Position numbers and translations under genes: made by a program. From NCBI GenBank assembly GCA_037442745.1, contig JBBIPP010000005.1:14976-78975 (forward strand): DNA of 64,000 bases. The letters run 5' to 3'. Below the pieces are notes generated by a model, which was not told the DNA's origin, did not search any database, and saw only the letters and a program-made list of their open reading frames with translations. Of the stretch, positions 57,028 to 64,000 are shown one piece after another; within the stretch, counting starts at the first letter, position 1, and each line of letters opens with the position of its first letter. This DNA is from an archaeon (lineage in GTDB: Archaea > SpSt-1190 > DYHY01).

Positions 57028-57695
57028 GTGAAAAAGGCGGGTGGCTGCGCTCATGATTGGCGCTGACGGGGTTCTCCTGAAAAAGGGCGCCCTCTTCAGC
57101 GAAGGGCTTTCTGTCCGCCAAAAAATCCCGAAAACGAAAATAAACGCATTCTTCAATGAGTTCAGGGACTTCCTCGTTGGGCGGGCGGATGTTTCGGAAA
57201 AAATCAAGAAATGTCTCAATTACTTGGACTGGAATGGTTCAGTTGAGTGGCTTCTTTCGTTCTGGCACGGGGAAATTGAGCCGGGCGCATCCCTTTTCAA
57301 ATGGGCGCTCTCAGCCGGGAAAAGGAGTGTTTTGGTGTTTCTCGCAAAAAACAACGACAAAAGAAGGGCGGAATCTTTATCGAAAAGTCTGGGGCTTAAA
57401 GAAGTTCGATGGAGTCCTCTCGTCTGCATCTCTTTGGGCAATGAAGCCGGAAAGGGATTTTTGCAGGAAAGCCCTCGGCGTTCTCGGGGAGATTCGCCGG
57501 GGTATTTTGAAGAGCCAAATACTCCTTGTTGACGACGACCTGAAGAATGTCCTTGGCGCAATGGAGGTCGGGTTCTGGGAAATCCGCTACTCGAGCTTTT
57601 CAGACTTCTCAAAAACTCTCAAGAAAAAATCCCGGAACTCGTTACTTGATTTCAATCCCGAGGGGCGTTGCCTCGAACTCTATCCAGTCTGTTAG
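57028..57695 (+). pseudogene. HAD-family phosphatase pseudogene
   Basis: MIGADGVL (first catalytic Asp lost), LAKNN, frameshift ~57400 to SASL..MKP...ILLVDDDLKNV.GA..VG. Confidence 0.7.
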
Positions 57696-58334
57696 GACTT
57701 TTCCCGTTGGTCTCCTCGGCACCCTGAAATAGTCCCGCCCCCCTTCGCTCTTGAACTCAATTGTGGCGTCAGTCAGATGCTCGAGAGTGGTTATTACCCG
57801 CTCGTCATGCATCCCCGCCTCTATTGAGAACAGCGTTGTTGCTCCCAATCCCTTCAGGCGGGCGCCCATTACCTGTATGAACCTGAACACAATGTCTGCG
57901 TTGTTGTAGAGGACAAGGGTTGAGAGGGAATGGAAAGACATTCGGGAGTTCGCCCCCGGTTTTGAAATCTCAGAGAGCGCTCTTGACACTGCAATTGATA
58001 GCTCGTTTAATGAAGAAGGTCCGGGAACTATGATATCTGAATTCCTTCCTTCTGGCATCTTCTGCTGGAGCGCCCAGGAATAGCAGTCAACGAATTTTGC
58101 CCTTGAGAGATCCATTCCGAAGGATAAAGCCCGCTTCTCAAGATCGGCAGGCGAATTGTCAGTCGTAACATATGCGCAAGGTTCGCCAATCTTTGTTCCA
58201 TATGCCAGGAATTGGGAGAGGAACAGGTCTTTTTTCGAGGAAGGGGAGCCTATAACTAGGAAATTGGTTTTCTCGGAAAAGCCCCCATCAAGGAGCTCGT
58301 CAAATTTCCCTATCCCTATTTTCAAAAAGAGCAT
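57642..58334 (-). CDS. KaiC/RAD55-family ATPase-like protein, degenerate Walker A
   Basis: GI..FDELLDGG, GSPSSKKDLF, GEPCAYVT, FVDCYS, HSLSTL, LEHLTD..IEF. Confidence 0.88.
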   Translation of the reverse strand: MLFLKIGIGKFDELLDGGFSEKTNFLVIGSPSSKKDLFLSQFLAYGTKIGEPCAYVTTDNSPADLEKRALSFGMDLSRAKFVDCYSWALQQKMPEGRNSDIIVPGPSSLNELSIAVSRALSEISKPGANSRMSFHSLSTLVLYNNADIVFRFIQVMGARLKGLGATTLFSIEAGMHDERVITTLEHLTDATIEFKSEGGRDYFRVPRRPTGKVLTDWIEFEATPLGIEIK

Positions 58335-58346
58335 TTCTCTGTTAAT

Positions 58347-58721
58347 TCACCCCAATTTCAATGATATTTTCTCGCTCGCCCTGCCCATTTCGAGGAGCAC
58401 TAGGCCAAGATTCCCTGTTGGTCTCACAAGGCAGACTAACAGAGCCTGGTTTCCGGCAGGAATTGCGATTAGTTTCCCCTTTTCTGATTCGACTATTATC
58501 TGCGGGAATTTCCCGAGATTAAGCTCTCCTGCGGAAGTCTCGGCAGTTCCGACAATTGCGGCTGACATTGCTGCAATTGTCCGGGAGTCTATTTTCGTGG
58601 AAAGGGAGGAGGAAATCATTAGCCCGTCCTTTCGGGCAATTGCAGCCCCTTGGATGTCTCCGAATTCCTGGAGGTGCGCAAGTACAGTTTCAAGCTCTTT
58701 CTGTTTCTCTTCCAGTCCCAT
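58347..58721 (-). CDS. Roadblock/LC7 (MglB-like) protein
   Basis: AIARKDGLMISS, IAAMSAAI.G.AE....EL..G, NLGLVLLEM. Confidence 0.93.
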   Translation of the reverse strand: MGLEEKQKELETVLAHLQEFGDIQGAAIARKDGLMISSSLSTKIDSRTIAAMSAAIVGTAETSAGELNLGKFPQIIVESEKGKLIAIPAGNQALLVCLVRPTGNLGLVLLEMGRASEKISLKLG

Positions 58722-58723
58722 TT

Positions 58724-59923
58724 TCAGGCAGTCCCTCCGGGAGCCTTTCCTTCATTCTTAAATCCTATTATCAGGTCAAAAAGGGCGACAAGAGTGTCGA
58801 AAATCCCAGTTCCGTCAAGGGCAATTGTCCGTATTAAGGGAACTCTTGGGGAAATTGAGAGGGCTTTTCTGATTTCTTCCGATTCGATTGCGCCTTCAAG
58901 GTCGCTTTTGTTCGCTGCAACAACGAAAGGAAGCCGCCCTCCGGAAACAAGGTAAATCATTTCCCGCGCCCTTTGGAAAGATTCCCGGTCAGTCGAATCG
59001 ACAACGAGAATTACCCCGAAAGTGTCCCTCGCAAGTATTGGGAGAATGAAGTTGAACGCCTCCTGGCCGGGAGTCCCGAACAAGTCTATTGAAAATCCCT
59101 TGTATTCAACATATCCGTGGTCAAGGGCAACTGTTGTTCCTAGCCTGTCGACTGAGACTGCCTTTGTCGAGATTTTGTGTATGAATGTTGACTTTCCCGA
59201 GTGGTAGGGGCCTGTGACAATCACTTTCGGGACATATAGGGAAATCCCTCCGCCTGTTGACGAAACCTTGAACGGTATGTGGAGGTCCTTTCTTGATGAA
59301 ACAGTATAGAAGCTCCTCTCAATGAAATTCTCCTCAACTGAATCTATTGTTATTGTGCAAGGGAAAAGATTGCATAGGCTTTTTGCGAGCAAATCGTCCT
59401 CTTCGGTAATTCTTGGAAAGAGAAAAATCGGGCACATTCCGCCCTGTGCGGATTTTTCCATTAGCGCAAGTATTTGCTCGGTCAGTTTTTTGTCGCCTTC
59501 GTTGAAGAAGCCGGACGCAAGGGAATCGAAAACAATCAGCTTCGAGCCTGTCTTTTCCGAATATTCTGGGATAATTCCGCTCATTTCCGAGAGGGATTTC
59601 ACTGAAGTGATTCCCTCCTCAGCCCCGCCTGACGGGAAAATCCCCAGGTTCGCGGAATATGCGTCAATGAACTTGAGGTTTGCCGGATTGAATGCAAGCC
59701 TCATTGACAAGAGTCTCTCTCGGACGAATGACGGCATTTTGTCGGAAACGAAATATGTGCAAGGGACGCTCTTCGACGCTTCCGCAACAATCTGCTGGCC
59801 GAATACCTCAACATCCGAGCCCAAGGATCCAGTTATTAGGACTGGGCTTTTCAGGGAGAGCCCTCCGCCCAAAAGCTCGTCCATTTTCGGTATTCCTGTT
59901 CTGATAATTGAGTCAGCCGTCAT
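58724..59923 (-). CDS. Fusion of inactive KaiC/RAD55-like domain and small GTPase (MglA/conservon type)
   Basis: N: TGIPKMDELLGGG, GSLGSDVE, FIDAYS, VFDSL; C: GPYHSGKST, TTVALDHG, FGTPGQ, NKSD; start ATG 59923. Confidence 0.9.
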   Translation of the reverse strand: MTADSIIRTGIPKMDELLGGGLSLKSPVLITGSLGSDVEVFGQQIVAEASKSVPCTYFVSDKMPSFVRERLLSMRLAFNPANLKFIDAYSANLGIFPSGGAEEGITSVKSLSEMSGIIPEYSEKTGSKLIVFDSLASGFFNEGDKKLTEQILALMEKSAQGGMCPIFLFPRITEEDDLLAKSLCNLFPCTITIDSVEENFIERSFYTVSSRKDLHIPFKVSSTGGGISLYVPKVIVTGPYHSGKSTFIHKISTKAVSVDRLGTTVALDHGYVEYKGFSIDLFGTPGQEAFNFILPILARDTFGVILVVDSTDRESFQRAREMIYLVSGGRLPFVVAANKSDLEGAIESEEIRKALSISPRVPLIRTIALDGTGIFDTLVALFDLIIGFKNEGKAPGGTA

Positions 59924-59924
59924 C

Positions 59925-60323
59925 TCAGAGAGTTCCCTCCGCGAGAATCTGGGAAACCTTGTTTGCAACCCGCCCCATTTCAAGAAGGACGAGCCCGAGG
60001 TTCGCCCTGTCGCTCACAAGGCATATCAAAAGGGCGAAACTGCCCGCCCCAGTTGCAATTAATTTTCCCTTTTCAGCCTCGACAACAATCTGGAGGAACC
60101 TTCCAAGCTGGAGTTCGGCAGAGCAGGTTTCCGCCGTTCCGACAAGGGCAGCCGACATTGCGGCAACCATTTTTCCGTCCGTTTCCTTTGGAAGGAGGGA
60201 TGCTACCATTAGTCCGTCCCGCCGGACAACTGCGACACCTTGAATTTCTGGAAGAGTCTCTAGGAAAGCGAGGACATCCTCCAATTGCTTTTCAATTCCG
60301 GGTTTCTCTGAAACAGCTTCCAT
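59925..60323 (-). CDS. Roadblock/LC7 (MglB-like) protein, paralog of 58347..58721
   Basis: VVRRDGLMVAS, VAAMSAALVGTAET, NLGLVLLEMGR. Confidence 0.93.
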   Translation of the reverse strand: MEAVSEKPGIEKQLEDVLAFLETLPEIQGVAVVRRDGLMVASLLPKETDGKMVAAMSAALVGTAETCSAELQLGRFLQIVVEAEKGKLIATGAGSFALLICLVSDRANLGLVLLEMGRVANKVSQILAEGTL

Positions 60324-60698
60324 CTAACCAGCCCCCTTGCCTGGCTCCTTGACGAAACTGTTGTTTAACTCTAAAAGCCAGTTGGGAAGAAGATCTTGAC
60401 AGCTACTCGGCTCGACAATTTTGGATTTGCAGGGCTTGTCCAATCCTGAACAGGCACGTCCGGCGAGTGTTTTTGCAACAGGCCCGATTATTTTCACATA
60501 AAGGTTGACGAATGCGTCAACGCCTTCTTTTGAAAAATCCTCCGGAACTGTTATTTTTCCGTCTTTTGAGGCTGATACTCCCTTGAGAGACCCGGCAAGA
60601 GTATATGCAGTTCTCCCTATTATTTTGGCAACATTTTCGGCAATTGCCGAGCAGAGGGAATTGTAAAAACGGGTTTTCTCTTCAGCGGAAAGTTCCAT
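60324..60698 (-). CDS. Small helical protein with internal KIIG repeat, first gene of Roadblock/GTPase operon
   Basis: KIIGRTA...A and KIIGPVA...A; abuts the Roadblock start. Confidence 0.7.
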   Translation of the reverse strand: MELSAEEKTRFYNSLCSAIAENVAKIIGRTAYTLAGSLKGVSASKDGKITVPEDFSKEGVDAFVNLYVKIIGPVAKTLAGRACSGLDKPCKSKIVEPSSCQDLLPNWLLELNNSFVKEPGKGAG

Positions 60699-60812
60699 TG
60701 GCAATTTGGAACAGATATTAACAAAATCTTTATTTATATTTTGTTAATTGGCTCTTTTTAACAAGAATTCGTGAAATAAGCATTTCCTAGTGGTTTGATT
60801 CCTTTTTGAATG

Positions 60813-61646
60813 TTAAAATGAATTCAGTTTGACATTCAATTTCGCTTTCAGGTCATAATAATTCTCCTCGTCAATCTCGCCTGCGAAATATTTGCGGGTA
60901 AGTTCTGATAGCGTTCCTTCGACTTTTTCAGGCGCTTCGGTTTTTTTTGCATAACTGACGAGAGCCTCGGAGAGTTCTTCAATATCAGAAATTGCCTGTT
61001 TGAAATTTGTGTTAATTTCGGAATATTCTTGTATAAGTGCCAATTTTTCGTCAATTTTCCCCAATTCTCTTATTATTCTGGATTTAATATCATAATAGCT
61101 TGAATCAGATGCAAGTCCGTTAAGATGCTCTTTTTCAAGAGTGAAGAGCGCGTTTTCGAGCTCATCCTTGCGCTTAATTTGAGAATCTATTGAAAGTTCT
61201 CCAATTATTGAAGCAAGAAGGAGAATCTGTTTTGAGAAAAAGTCAATTATTTCATTTTTTGGCCGATTTTTCTTTCCAAGAGAATATTTGAATTTAGATT
61301 CCCCCAAGGAGAACTCTGGAATGCTGGAATCGTCAGTTGAAAAGTTTTTGGTCCTATTCAAGGCCGCCGCTTCGAAATTTCTTTTGTCTCGTTCCAGAAA
61401 ACTTTTTTCGCTACCTTCAGAGTTTCCGACAAAGTTCTCCTTGAGGAGTTCAGTGACGGACTTGCTCATATTAGGCTCCCTTTTCGGGTCCGGAAAATTG
61501 GGAGGTTCCTTTTGGTTGATTAGGGAAGTTCTTTTCACTTCTTTGGGTTCACCAATAGGTTCCTTGGAGGAAGAAACTGCTGTTTTCAAGTCAATCAGAC
61601 TTTGGGGTTTGGTAAATTTGTTTAGAAATTTATCTGACGGGTTCAT
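60813..61646 (-). CDS. Coiled-coil protein with two SHOCT-like motifs
   Basis: LEKEHLNGLASDSSYYDIK and LTRKYFAGEIDEENYYDLK; ATGA overlap with upstream HTH gene. Confidence 0.75.
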   Translation of the reverse strand: MNPSDKFLNKFTKPQSLIDLKTAVSSSKEPIGEPKEVKRTSLINQKEPPNFPDPKREPNMSKSVTELLKENFVGNSEGSEKSFLERDKRNFEAAALNRTKNFSTDDSSIPEFSLGESKFKYSLGKKNRPKNEIIDFFSKQILLLASIIGELSIDSQIKRKDELENALFTLEKEHLNGLASDSSYYDIKSRIIRELGKIDEKLALIQEYSEINTNFKQAISDIEELSEALVSYAKKTEAPEKVEGTLSELTRKYFAGEIDEENYYDLKAKLNVKLNSF

Positions 61647-62131
61647 TCAGTCTCCTGCTCCCCTCCCGAAGATTTTTCCGACATACCAGAGTTCAATATG
61701 AAAAAGCTCACTCTTCCCTCTTTTTCTTTGGAAATTGCTGATTTTCTAGTAAGAGAATTAAGCACTTCGCTTGTTCTGGTCCTAGAAAGGCCCGAAAGAA
61801 GAGAAGCTTCAGGAGCGCTTATTTTACCGCTTTTTTTAACAAGATCAAATATTGCTCTTTCAACCTCATTAAAATCCGGCTCTTTTTTCTTTTTTGAAAC
61901 AGGTTTTTCAACAGTTTTTGTCAAAAGTTCAAGATTTTCAAGCTTTTCTCTTACCTGAAGCAATTGGTGGTTTGAATATGCAACAGAATCGGAAGTGTGT
62001 TTCATTTGTCGATCAAGTTCCTCAAAACGGGCCAGAATAAGTGATTTAAGTTCCGACAAATCCCGTTCAATTTCATCGAATCCGACGGCTTTCTTAAAGA
62101 AACTTGACGGCGGATTAAGCTGTTCGGGCAT
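61643..62131 (-). CDS. Coiled-coil + C-terminal winged-helix DNA-binding protein
   Basis: N-terminal heptads; ISAPEASLLSGLSRTRTSEVLNSLTRKSAISKEKEGRVSFF wHTH. Confidence 0.82.
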   Translation of the reverse strand: MPEQLNPPSSFFKKAVGFDEIERDLSELKSLILARFEELDRQMKHTSDSVAYSNHQLLQVREKLENLELLTKTVEKPVSKKKKEPDFNEVERAIFDLVKKSGKISAPEASLLSGLSRTRTSEVLNSLTRKSAISKEKEGRVSFFILNSGMSEKSSGGEQETE

Positions 62132-62596
62132 TATTTATTCTACCTAGAGCTATTCTAACATCCTTTTATTTATCTATTGTGTTACAACTATCGACAGGTA
62201 TTTAGCCATTGAGTAGTTCTTCCGACATATTGAAAGGTATTACCAAAGTTTTGAATGTTCAAAGATTTCGCGTATCGGGACTTGAAATTCAGGCTTTATT
62301 TGACGGAGAATTAGCCAGGAAAAAGCAGTTCTTCAAACGTCAAGATGTGTCGAAAAACATGTTTTAAAAAAAGCTAAAAATTCCAACTATCTAAAGTGCT
62401 AATAAGGGAGGCTATAAGTTCTTAACTGAATCTTCTAAAAACCTATCTGTTCATTGGAGGACGCCAGTTATGTACAATTCAAACAATAAAACGGTGTTCG
62501 ACAAATAAGACTCTTTGGACACATATGGACACATTGAGGTTTCTAGTAATCAAATAAAACACCCATTAATTTGTTTAATTGGCAGTTTCGACACAT
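61677..62596. repeat. Cluster of ~10 dispersed 10-mers, consensus about YYCGACANAT
   Basis: TCCGACATAC 61677, rc ATCGACAAAT 62004, TCCGACAAAT 62052, ATCGACAGGT 62190, TCCGACATAT 62221, rc TTCGACACAT 62345, TTCGACAAAT 62497, TTGGACACAT 62515, ATGGACACAT 62525, TTCGACACAT 62587. Confidence 0.65.
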
Positions 62597-62654
62597 TATT
62601 AATCTGACGAACAAATTAACTCCAGTTCAACAATAGGGCGAATAATCAGCCGTC

Positions 62655-63422
62655 TTATCGGTATCTCAACCAATTGACAACTCTTTCAAGAATATATTTC
62701 TCTTTGTATTCAATTTCACATAACCAGGAAGCAATTTTTCTGTAACTTTCAACTGTTTTAGAATTTGGCCGATAATAAAGCAATACTTTTCGTTCAGACA
62801 GTGCTTTGTGTATGTTGGTATCGAAAGGAATTTTGCCAACAACGGGAAGATCTGTAAGAGTCTCAATTTCAATTGAAGAAAATTCATGGCCCTTATTATG
62901 AATCATATTAACAACAACACCCAAAGGAGTTCTATTGTATTTTTGGATTAATTTATGGCATCTCATAATGTCGACTGCTGACGGAGCCTGAGGAATTGTG
63001 ACGAACAGGGCTTCGTCACATGCTTTCATTGTAACAATTGCTTCTCTCCCAAGACCTGCTGCAGCATCAAGAAAAACAAAATCAGCTTTCTTGACCAGTT
63101 TTTTCACAACTTTCTCTAGGTCAATTAAATCAACTCCCTTGAGATCGTTAACTGAAAGACCGGCCGGAATAACGCTCATTCCACTTTTATGTTTGTAGAT
63201 TGCATCCTCAAGATTAGCTTTGCCTTGCAGAACTGTGTTAAGAGTAACTGGCGTATCATATAGTCCCAAATAAAGGCCAAGATGCGATGTTGTGAAATTA
63301 CAGTCAAGAACAACAACATTCTTTTTGAATTCTTCAGCAAGAACTGCTCCGAGGTTTGCAACAAGAGTTGTTTTTCCAACTCCGCCCTTGCCACTAATTA
63401 CCCCAATTATTCTTGTATTCAT
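62655..63422 (-). CDS. minD: MinD/ParA-family ATPase
   Basis: SGKGGVGKTT deviant Walker A, LDCN, LDAAAGLG, GVVVN, IPFD; C-terminal amphipathic ILERVVNWLR. Confidence 0.92.
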   Translation of the reverse strand: MNTRIIGVISGKGGVGKTTLVANLGAVLAEEFKKNVVVLDCNFTTSHLGLYLGLYDTPVTLNTVLQGKANLEDAIYKHKSGMSVIPAGLSVNDLKGVDLIDLEKVVKKLVKKADFVFLDAAAGLGREAIVTMKACDEALFVTIPQAPSAVDIMRCHKLIQKYNRTPLGVVVNMIHNKGHEFSSIEIETLTDLPVVGKIPFDTNIHKALSERKVLLYYRPNSKTVESYRKIASWLCEIEYKEKYILERVVNWLRYR

Positions 63423-63423
63423 T

Positions 63424-63963
63424 TCAATTCGTCTGGCCTTTTATTTGGTTTATTTTTCGTTGAAGTTCCTCAAGTTTCCGCTCGTTTCCCATCTTCAGTT
63501 CAGAGTAGCTTTCAGCTGAAATAAAACCTTGTTTGTATTCCCTTTCAAGAATTAAGAGGATTTTCCTGACTTTGGAAAGCTCAGTTTCAAGGGAATTGAT
63601 GTTCAGATCTTGACTGTCAAGAAGATCCTTTATTCTCCGAAGACTTGCCATATCCCCTTCCAAACTGCGCAATTTTTCGATTTGAACTGCTTTTTCATTG
63701 TTCTGAGCCCGTTCCTGGAAAATTTCGGATTGGGGTTGTTTCGAAAGGATTGGAGAGCTTTCCCGTTCAAAAGAGTCTGCCTTTTCTTCGAAAGTTCTGC
63801 GGGAAATTGAAATCCGTTCCTCTTCCTCTTTTTCGCTGTTCGCTTCCTGGTAAATCATTGCTTCCCGCTCGCCCGCAGTCTGTCTTTTCAGGAAACGGAA
63901 ATTTTCATCCATTCTTACCTCGGGTTGGGGTATTGGAGCTTCTTTAAAGCCAATCTTTCTCAT
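63424..63963 (-). CDS. Coiled-coil protein with SHOCT-like motif, directly upstream of minD
   Basis: LEREYKQGFISAESYSELK; 1-nt gap to minD. Confidence 0.75.
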   Translation of the reverse strand: MRKIGFKEAPIPQPEVRMDENFRFLKRQTAGEREAMIYQEANSEKEEEERISISRRTFEEKADSFERESSPILSKQPQSEIFQERAQNNEKAVQIEKLRSLEGDMASLRRIKDLLDSQDLNINSLETELSKVRKILLILEREYKQGFISAESYSELKMGNERKLEELQRKINQIKGQTN

Positions 63964-64000
63964 TACTCTTGTAAAAAAGGTTGTGCGTTCTTTGTATTTT

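Follow-up and report, generated by a model that had tools for sequence, protein, structure and literature searches.

The wHTH locus and its box array

The 64,000-nt stretch of DNA analysed here (the window; G000:C5:14976-78975) belongs to a DPANN archaeon whose assembly comprises 1.14 Mb (1,136,343 bp) in 20 contigs. Towards its right end lies a gene for a 162-aa coiled-coil winged helix-turn-helix (wHTH) protein, preceded by a 523-bp non-coding gap with an array of short TGTCG-type boxes and, beyond the gap, by two genes for MinD-type ATPases, called MinD255 and MinD-long here. The order on the minus strand is MinD-long, MinD255, the gap, the wHTH gene and a gene for a 277-aa coiled-coil protein. 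In a comparison with other archaea, the boxes, the recognition helix of the wHTH protein and the MinD neighbourhood proved to be jointly conserved in five families. Throughout, G-numbers denote genomes (G000 being the source assembly), L-numbers loci or contigs, and f-numbers archaeal families, f1 being that of the window. The features of the locus, from right to left, are as follows.

63424..64000, minus strand: 3' part of the gene for MinD-long (431 aa), which crosses the window edge (L001:6400-7695); Pfam matches to CbiA, AAA_31 and ParA
62655..63422, minus strand: MinD255, archaeal-type MinD of 255 aa, identified by TIGR01969 and archaeal MinD structures; Walker A motif SGKGGVGKTT, tail ILERVVNWLRY
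62132..62654, no strand: non-coding gap with the box array, 523 bp
62497..62596, minus strand: MinD-proximal box cluster, with, in gene orientation, ATGTGTCGAA at 62587-62596, the variants ATGTGTCCAT and ATGTGTCCAA at 62515-62534, and ATTTGTCGAA at 62497-62506
62375..62430, no strand: central conserved block of ~55 nt, ..CAGTT..AAC.TTT..CCTTATT.G..TAGTTGGAA.T, found in all four f1 gaps
62345..62354, plus strand: single box of opposite orientation, reading ATGTGTCGAA on the plus strand, missing from L019
62190..62230, minus strand: promoter-proximal boxes, ATATGTCGGA at 62221-62230 and ACCTGTCGAT at 62190-62199, at distances of 96 and 65 nt from the ATG
62162..62174, minus strand: TATA-like element GATAAATAAAAGG, about 30-42 nt 5' of the wHTH start codon
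61643..62131, minus strand: coiled-coil wHTH protein, 162 aa, described from an AlphaFold2 (AF2) model, alignments and Foldseek
60813..61646, minus strand: coiled-coil protein, 277 aa, with a 4-nt overlap with the wHTH stop codon

An earlier note on this DNA had described the gap as AT-rich and unusually long (~520 bp), the region beyond ~60700 as AT-richer, and the boxes as including an exact inverted pair, a tandem and three copies inside the wHTH gene, and each of these descriptions proved accurate. The gap has a GC fraction of 0.34 against 0.475 for the window and is the window's longest stretch without an open reading frame (ORF) of at least 70 aa, the runner-up measuring 481 bp; the zone right of ~60700 is AT-richer too. 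Exact matches to YYCGACANAT lie at 62052, 62221, 62345(-), 62497 and 62587, the first of them within the wHTH gene, which holds two further copies with one mismatch (61677 and 62004(-)). One-mismatch copies in the gap are found at 62298(-), 62515 and 62602(-). The inverted pair is TTCGACACAT, at 62345 (reverse complement) and 62587, and the tandem is TTGGACACAT-ATGGACACAT at 62515, with its ATGGACACAT copy at 62524-62534; the box ACCTGTCGAT at 62190-62199 reads ATCGACAGGT on the plus strand.

The motif is concentrated at this locus. Nine exact YYCGACANAT matches occur in the window, five of them in 62052-62596, against a shuffled expectation of 1.84 for the window, and none of 100 shuffles reached nine. 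The 1,136,343 bp of the genome hold 81 matches, and the sole 600-bp span with more than two is this locus, with five. Read in gene orientation, the motif is A-Y-N-TGTCG-R. When refined with the flank consensus from relatives (AYNTGTCGR), it occurs 158 times in the genome, six of these falling within one 550-bp span here (0.076 expected), while the next best span has three. Motif density against the genome background, a comparison that the earlier note had proposed, therefore identifies the locus as the densest cluster in the assembly. Since the bare core TGTCG is frequent in the genome, at 2.7 per kb, with GC-rich coding stretches matching the locus count, the signal rests on the longer motif together with composition: among 675 sampled 523-bp segments with GC below 0.40, at least five TGTCG were found at this locus only. 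The other TGTCG-rich spots (C10:4200, C4:51390, C7:4790 and C12:48600) all lie within coding frames, that at C10:4200 being a Thr-Pro-Thr repeat. Separately, an intragenic run, TTCGACATTGTCGGAACTGTCGGAA, at G000:C4:51385-51415 is similar to the box arrangement in the gaps of G001 and G003; either chance or a secondary site may explain the likeness.

The gene order of the locus, again with a long gap, is present in G001 (same genus, 560 bp), in G003 (same family, 364 bp) and in the metagenome contig L019, the sole additional locus from a metagenome scan, whose wHTH protein is 93% identical. Every f1 gap carries TGTCG(A/G) boxes, read in gene orientation, in both orientations. Only 341 of 524 columns (65%) are identical between the gaps of G000 and L019, yet four of the five canonical boxes (62587, 62497, 62221 and 62190) are retained at the same aligned positions; by our own arithmetic the chance of this is ~1 in 1000. 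A TATA-like GGATAAATAA, ~30-45 nt from the start codon, is conserved in G001 and G003, and GATAAATAAAAGG may be a promoter element. Some conserved f1 boxes lie as much as 370-460 nt ahead of the wHTH start codon, which is far for a simple archaeal operator. Searches for another function of the gap gave no candidate: Rfam returned no match at E<=1 over 60000-64000, the consensus RNA fold of the central block from four sequences reached -0.9 and -0.8 kcal/mol on the two strands with no notable helix, and no small ORF is shared among all four family gaps. The words ACAGTT and AGTTGGAA of the central block recur near boxes in G005 and G108.

The earlier note had offered a replication origin as an alternative, in which the boxes would be initiator sites flanking an AT-rich unwinding element. 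The gap is indeed AT-rich, and its two box clusters flank the conserved central block. However, both Orc1/Cdc6 genes lie on contigs other than C5, which holds the locus (C3:71662 and C7:75946), and this makes an origin here unlikely. In G005, G044 and G376 the module shares a contig with orc1 and is 88, 118 and 150 kb away from it, respectively; moreover, the boxes track the wHTH gene rather than orc1, a clear skew turn at the locus is absent, and the C3 copy of Orc1/Cdc6 has an upstream inverted repeat of its own. We give this explanation almost no credence. The C3 repeat, ahead of the best Orc1/Cdc6 gene (L063:1139-1281), has 16-nt arms, GTTGGATTCTTTTTTT and AACAAAAGAATCCAAC, 111 nt apart, and is plausible as an origin element.

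A lower-GC island might also point to an integrated plasmid or virus whose partition cassette is still resident or has been left as a remnant. The combination of ATPase, DNA binder and repeats is typical of plasmid par loci, and the cassette is poorer in GC than its flanks by 8-11 points in G000, L019, G001 and G003 (window 60700-64000, L019, L015 and L016). Yet overall GC in these four genomes ranges from ~0.48 to 0.63 and cassette GC tracks each host, so the offset appears to be a conserved property and not the trace of recent transfer. Synteny is held in the family-level relative G003, a tRNA search of 19.6 kb around the cassette found none, no integrase family was seen among the neighbouring ORFs scanned, and the wHTH protein had no match in plasmid and phage collections, which hold few DPANN elements. 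A mobile origin of the cassette is thus very improbable.

The wHTH family and its boxes across archaea

The AF2 model of the 162-aa protein (mean predicted local distance difference test score 84.7) has a long helix spanning residues 18-74, which a low-confidence linker joins to a wHTH domain (89-146). The recognition helix, SRTRTSEVLN, is conserved: SRTRxSE is invariant in all six sequences of alignment A3, and in the 41 sequences of alignment A4 the SRTR portion never varies, with conservation of 90% or more for the S and E after it. Most homologues have 120-125 aa. The protein stays below the gathering score of Pfam TrmB (PF01978; 18.7 bits against a cut-off of 25.6) and has no family match in NCBIfam, while Foldseek and profile searches returned generic MarR/ArsR/HlyU wHTH folds, and by sequence its nearest relatives of solved structure are regulators of the ArsR/HlyU type (E 2.7e-6). 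The ESM Atlas yielded only unnamed archaeal wHTH clusters, the few named homologues are called 'hypothetical' or 'transcriptional regulator' at source, and the family is small, counting 112 representative clusters out of 1.84 billion at E<=1e-10. The N-terminal stretch FFKKAVGF was considered as a membrane helix and dropped, as it is not the protein's most amphipathic segment. Six to ten tandem copies of this wHTH type also occur in single chains (P0173, 1182 aa; P0195, 581 aa; P0267, 1019 aa).

A profile search of 401 archaeal genomes matched 24 of them at E<=1e-10, in 25 loci. Eleven of these, with E<=1e-27, form a core set from five families: f1 (G000, G001, G003), f3 (G005, G007, G010, G011), f30 (G044), f60 (G108, G320) and f135 (G376); 14 weaker loci remain. 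An archaeal-type MinD gene lies within 1.5 kb in all 11 core loci and in none of the weaker ones. It is immediately 3' of the wHTH gene in eight core loci, i.e., in all those outside f1, and in G005 and G044 the two reading frames share 4 nt.

The boxes follow the wHTH gene into these lineages. Upstream of the wHTH gene, the 11 loci hold 46 TGTCG in 3.5 kb, where dinucleotide shuffles predict 4.5, compared with 63 in the remaining 31.9 kb. Enrichment is seen in 10 of the 11 loci, so that the boxes which the earlier note had proposed to look for at orthologous loci do recur, across five families. Flanking positions that were not used in the selection agree as well, with A at -3 in 31/45 boxes, Y at -2 in 36/45 and R at +5 in 42/45. 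Outside f1, two direct boxes stand 27-28 bp apart in six of the seven box-bearing loci, and additional boxes, mostly in the opposite orientation, lie closer to the gene; some boxes form palindromes, e.g., TGTCGACA and TGTCGATCGACA.

The proposal that the wHTH protein binds these boxes, also made in the earlier note, is thus upheld in its comparative part, in that boxes recur with orthologous wHTH genes (10/11 loci) and four of five are kept in L019, while binding itself remains a prediction. On this comparison, we think it likely that the TGTCG-type boxes are the binding sites of the wHTH protein.

MinD proteins, proposed function and rival explanations

Both MinD proteins of the window pass the archaeal MinD model (TIGR01969 minD_arch, cut-off 201.75 bits; MinD255 218.1, MinD-long 213.5). 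The MinDs coupled to wHTH genes in G005 and G044 fall below this cut-off, at 188.8 and 171.0 bits, with TIGR01969 still their best family. On the ParA_partition model NF041546 (cut-off 180 bits), MinD255 and MinD-long score 52.6 and 44.4. The closest solved relatives of MinD255 are the archaeal MinD structures 1HYQ, 1G3Q and 1ION; FleN is among the nearest after these (E ~1e-21). The deviant Walker A motif SGKGGVGKTT occupies residues 10-19 of MinD255 (pattern xKGGxGK[ST]), and K12, G13, G14, G16, K17, T18 and T19 are invariant in 61 MinD homologues.

The C-terminal tail of the MinD proteins is predicted to be an amphipathic, membrane-seeking helix. That of MinD255 has a hydrophobic moment of 0.69 against a 95th percentile of 0.58, in agreement with the amphipathic C-terminus that had been claimed for it. 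Over the last 28 residues, the short MinDs of f1 range from 0.65 to 0.76 and the coupled MinDs from 0.48 to 0.93, and MinD tails overall cover 0.48-0.97. In MinD-long, an amphipathic stretch follows the ATPase domain and leads into a coiled-coil C-terminal extension of ~180 aa with a SHOCT-like motif. In G000, four MinD paralogs of the archaeal type exceed the TIGR01969 cut-off (C10:19571-20275, C4:62336-63043 and two in window 62655-64000), and five relatives with 0.6-1.1 Mb have 3-5 archaeal MinD matches each; four paralogs are a heavy investment for such small genomes.

The model that we favour combines these elements. The long N-terminal helix of the wHTH protein would form a parallel dimer with two flexibly linked wHTH domains, each reading one A-Y-N-TGTCG-R half-site, and the flexible linkage would allow sites in either orientation and at irregular spacing. 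Boxes beside the TATA-like element would control the wHTH operon, while the array as a whole would present a specific DNA handle to the MinD-type ATPases encoded alongside. These, by way of their membrane-seeking C-terminal helix, would complete a partition-like or membrane-tethering module. The model follows type Ib par loci and SegAB, in which the centromere-binding protein doubles as operon repressor. We infer wHTH binding, autoregulation, MinD contact and a DNA-positioning role from sequence comparison, and we put forward the whole dual reading, with the array serving as both operator and DNA handle for the adjacent MinD ATPases, tentatively, as falling somewhat short of probable. A more ambitious form, a DPANN-wide MinD system that tethers or segregates a specific chromosomal locus through the wHTH protein bound to TGTCG 'centromere' boxes, the DNA being handed to membrane-bound MinD, is rather unlikely. 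In that case f1 would have an expanded, four-protein version of the system, with two MinDs, the wHTH protein and the coiled-coil protein, and with shared SHOCT-like tails.

Several observations weigh against a dual role. The motif was initially defined on the window itself, and the core locus G320 has zero boxes upstream of its wHTH gene. Since these genomes are related and the window was the source of the motif, the box counts overstate independence, and the five families are a fairer independent sample than the 11 loci. The coupling of the wHTH protein to MinD that the earlier note had inferred has comparative support insofar as a MinD gene is near in all 11 core loci, but in f1 the wHTH gene stands apart from the MinD type with which it is paired elsewhere. 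No MinD gene follows it there. Many DPANN proteins annotated as 'cell division ATPase MinD' share ~50% identity with MinD255, against 30-36% for the coupled MinDs. In two unrooted trees, which lack paralogs missed by the P-loop pattern (G005:C12, G011:C15 and G007:C5b) and the partial G001 MinD, and from which unknown residues (X) of the G003 MinD-long were removed, the coupled MinDs group together (support 93/94) with all four G000 paralogs outside. The idea that the window MinDs are orthologues of the coupled clade is therefore not supported by these trees. Since the G000 MinDs lie outside that clade, the f1 neighbourhood may not reflect the ancestral partnership; this position, together with the 277-aa protein that follows the wHTH gene and fills the slot held by MinD in other lineages, suggests that the f1 layout is derived. 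Outside f1, moreover, the boxes are confined to a compact region of ~130 bp between the wHTH gene and a divergent surface-protein gene, and have the classic look of a transcription-factor operator. Finally, four of the 14 weaker wHTH loci have at least three upstream boxes, all without MinD nearby. The boxes thus belong to the wHTH family as such, autoregulation is probably its ancestral job, and, since MinD-less relatives keep TGTCG boxes, plain autoregulation stays a strong rival.

In this simplest rival, the wHTH protein would be an ordinary autoregulating transcription factor, the boxes its operator (elsewhere also that of the divergent surface-protein gene) and MinD merely a co-transcribed gene or a neighbour that is not physically tied to DNA. 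Besides the MinD-less loci, the fixed 27-28 bp spacing of the compact non-f1 boxes, which lie 5' of a TATA-like element, speaks for it, as do the conservation of the divergent neighbour and the ArsR/HlyU-type regulators that are the nearest solved sequence relatives. However, MinD adjoins all 11 core loci and is directly downstream in eight, conserved f1 boxes stand up to 460 nt from the start codon, and, among characterised systems, a Walker ATPase with a small site-specific DNA binder and repeats usually makes up a partition module, as in SegAB and HpaAB. We regard a plain operator as a real possibility, although not as the probable answer.

The divergent surface-protein gene encodes an NPCBM_assoc-like domain and is conserved, with homologues in G005, G007, G010, G011, G108, G129, G206, G187 and G282. 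Examples are L005:2012-2401, L026:910-1353 and the upstream genes of L049, L050 and L055, and some of these surface proteins carry an N-terminal helix-turn-helix and a membrane segment. No homologue was found in G000 by tblastn at E<=1e-3.

MinD might instead act as FleN does on FleQ, as an ATP-dependent modulator of the wHTH factor that tunes linked surface or positioning genes and does not move DNA. FleN is an antiactivator and ranks, as noted, close to MinD255 among solved structures, and the coupled wHTH-MinD operon faces a surface-protein gene. On the other hand, a FleQ-type partner belongs to the AAA+ enhancer-binding proteins and differs from a small wHTH protein, and MinD255 passes the archaeal MinD model and not a FleN model. 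We regard a modulator role as improbable.

The dual reading, operator and DNA handle in one, has counterparts among known systems. Type Ib par loci (ParF-ParG-parH of TP228; delta-omega of pSM19035) combine a MinD-like Walker ATPase, a dimeric DNA binder that is also a repressor, and mixed-orientation repeats upstream. The locus described here shares with them a small Walker ATPase, a gene for a small site-specific binder and short mixed-orientation repeats, as far as sequence can tell. It differs in that its binder is a coiled-coil wHTH protein and not a ribbon-helix-helix, its ATPase passes the archaeal MinD model and has an amphipathic tail, its context is a DPANN chromosome, and the binder gene precedes the ATPase gene in most lineages. 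Noc and RocS are bacterial DNA-membrane tethers in which the amphipathic helix lies within the DNA binder itself. Here, too, a DNA binder would be linked to a membrane-seeking amphipathic helix, carried in this case by the putative MinD partner; there is no sequence relationship between Noc or RocS and the wHTH/MinD pair. The AspA-ParB-ParA system of pNOB8 (PDB 4RS8, 5K5Q) likewise has an archaeal wHTH gene first in the operon, its product binding centromere sites upstream of that gene (here predicted). The match to AspA is weak and generic, however, with a Foldseek E of ~1e-3, the level of many MarR/ArsR proteins, and a sequence E of ~0.1; AspA is without a long coiled coil, and pNOB8 needs a separate ParB adaptor.

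In the SegAB system of Sulfolobales, the ribbon-helix-helix protein SegB has its sites immediately ahead of the segAB operon; it reads a 23-bp imperfect palindrome and activates the ATPase through its N-terminus, and SegA is ParA-like and binds DNA (PMC8682754). The present locus resembles SegAB in lying on an archaeal chromosome and in pairing a Walker ATPase with an archaea-specific, putative DNA binder whose predicted sites are just upstream of its operon, but its ATPase is MinD-type and its binder a wHTH protein with predicted 5-bp cores in place of a SegB-type ribbon-helix-helix. HpaAB is an archaeal operon of an ATPase and a DNA binder able to position replicons, in which, unlike here, HpaA is a bacterial-type ParA and HpaB a ribbon-helix-helix protein (PMC13722703). 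The four Haloferax MinDs are not division proteins according to PMC13228585, which also describes the role and partners of archaeal MinD outside Haloferax motility positioning as unknown. MinD2 and MinD4 of Haloferax volcanii are, like the proteins here, MinD paralogs with conserved small neighbour genes but, unlike what is proposed here, they position motility machinery; no phenotype was reported for the MinD2 neighbour HVO_0596 (PMC11588486). ParA/MinD ATPases have been reviewed (PMC11407121), and the Arco oscillator (bioRxiv 10.64898/2026.07.23.738820) is an unrelated system. Searches of the full text of articles found no description of a wHTH protein that has cognate boxes and is paired with an archaeal MinD.

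Archaeal MinDs are widespread, and the genomes of 0.6-1.2 Mb considered here carry 3-5 paralogs each, while the mechanism of DNA segregation in DPANN is not known. The comparison defines a DNA motif and a small family of candidate partner proteins that share a conserved recognition helix, shows linkage to MinD genes in five families, and makes the wHTH protein a candidate DNA-handling partner for archaeal MinD. If tethering or segregation were its function, this would be the first candidate chromosome-handling machinery of DPANN and the first DNA-linked role for an archaeal MinD. If the wHTH protein were only an autoregulator, a new archaeal transcription-factor family with a predicted operator would still have been gained.

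Neighbouring genes

A repeated motif, L..L.keY..G.IseEsY..lK, is common to three otherwise unrelated proteins: the 277-aa protein (60813-61646), the tail of MinD-long (L001:6400-6950) and a 615-aa protein 13 kb away (L001:17656-19503). Pfam gave no match to these repeats, which we take to be SHOCT-like; the motif may be a common oligomerisation or docking module.

Downstream of the 277-aa gene lie a 126-aa ORF and genes for two Roadblock/LC7 proteins, a fusion of KaiC with a small GTPase, and a KaiC-like protein. The part of this run from 57642 to 60323 comprises the two Roadblock/LC7 proteins, the fusion, which is a 419-aa KaiC-like/Ras/Arf-like GTPase protein, and the KaiC-like protein, and looks like an MglA/MglB cluster with KaiC modules.

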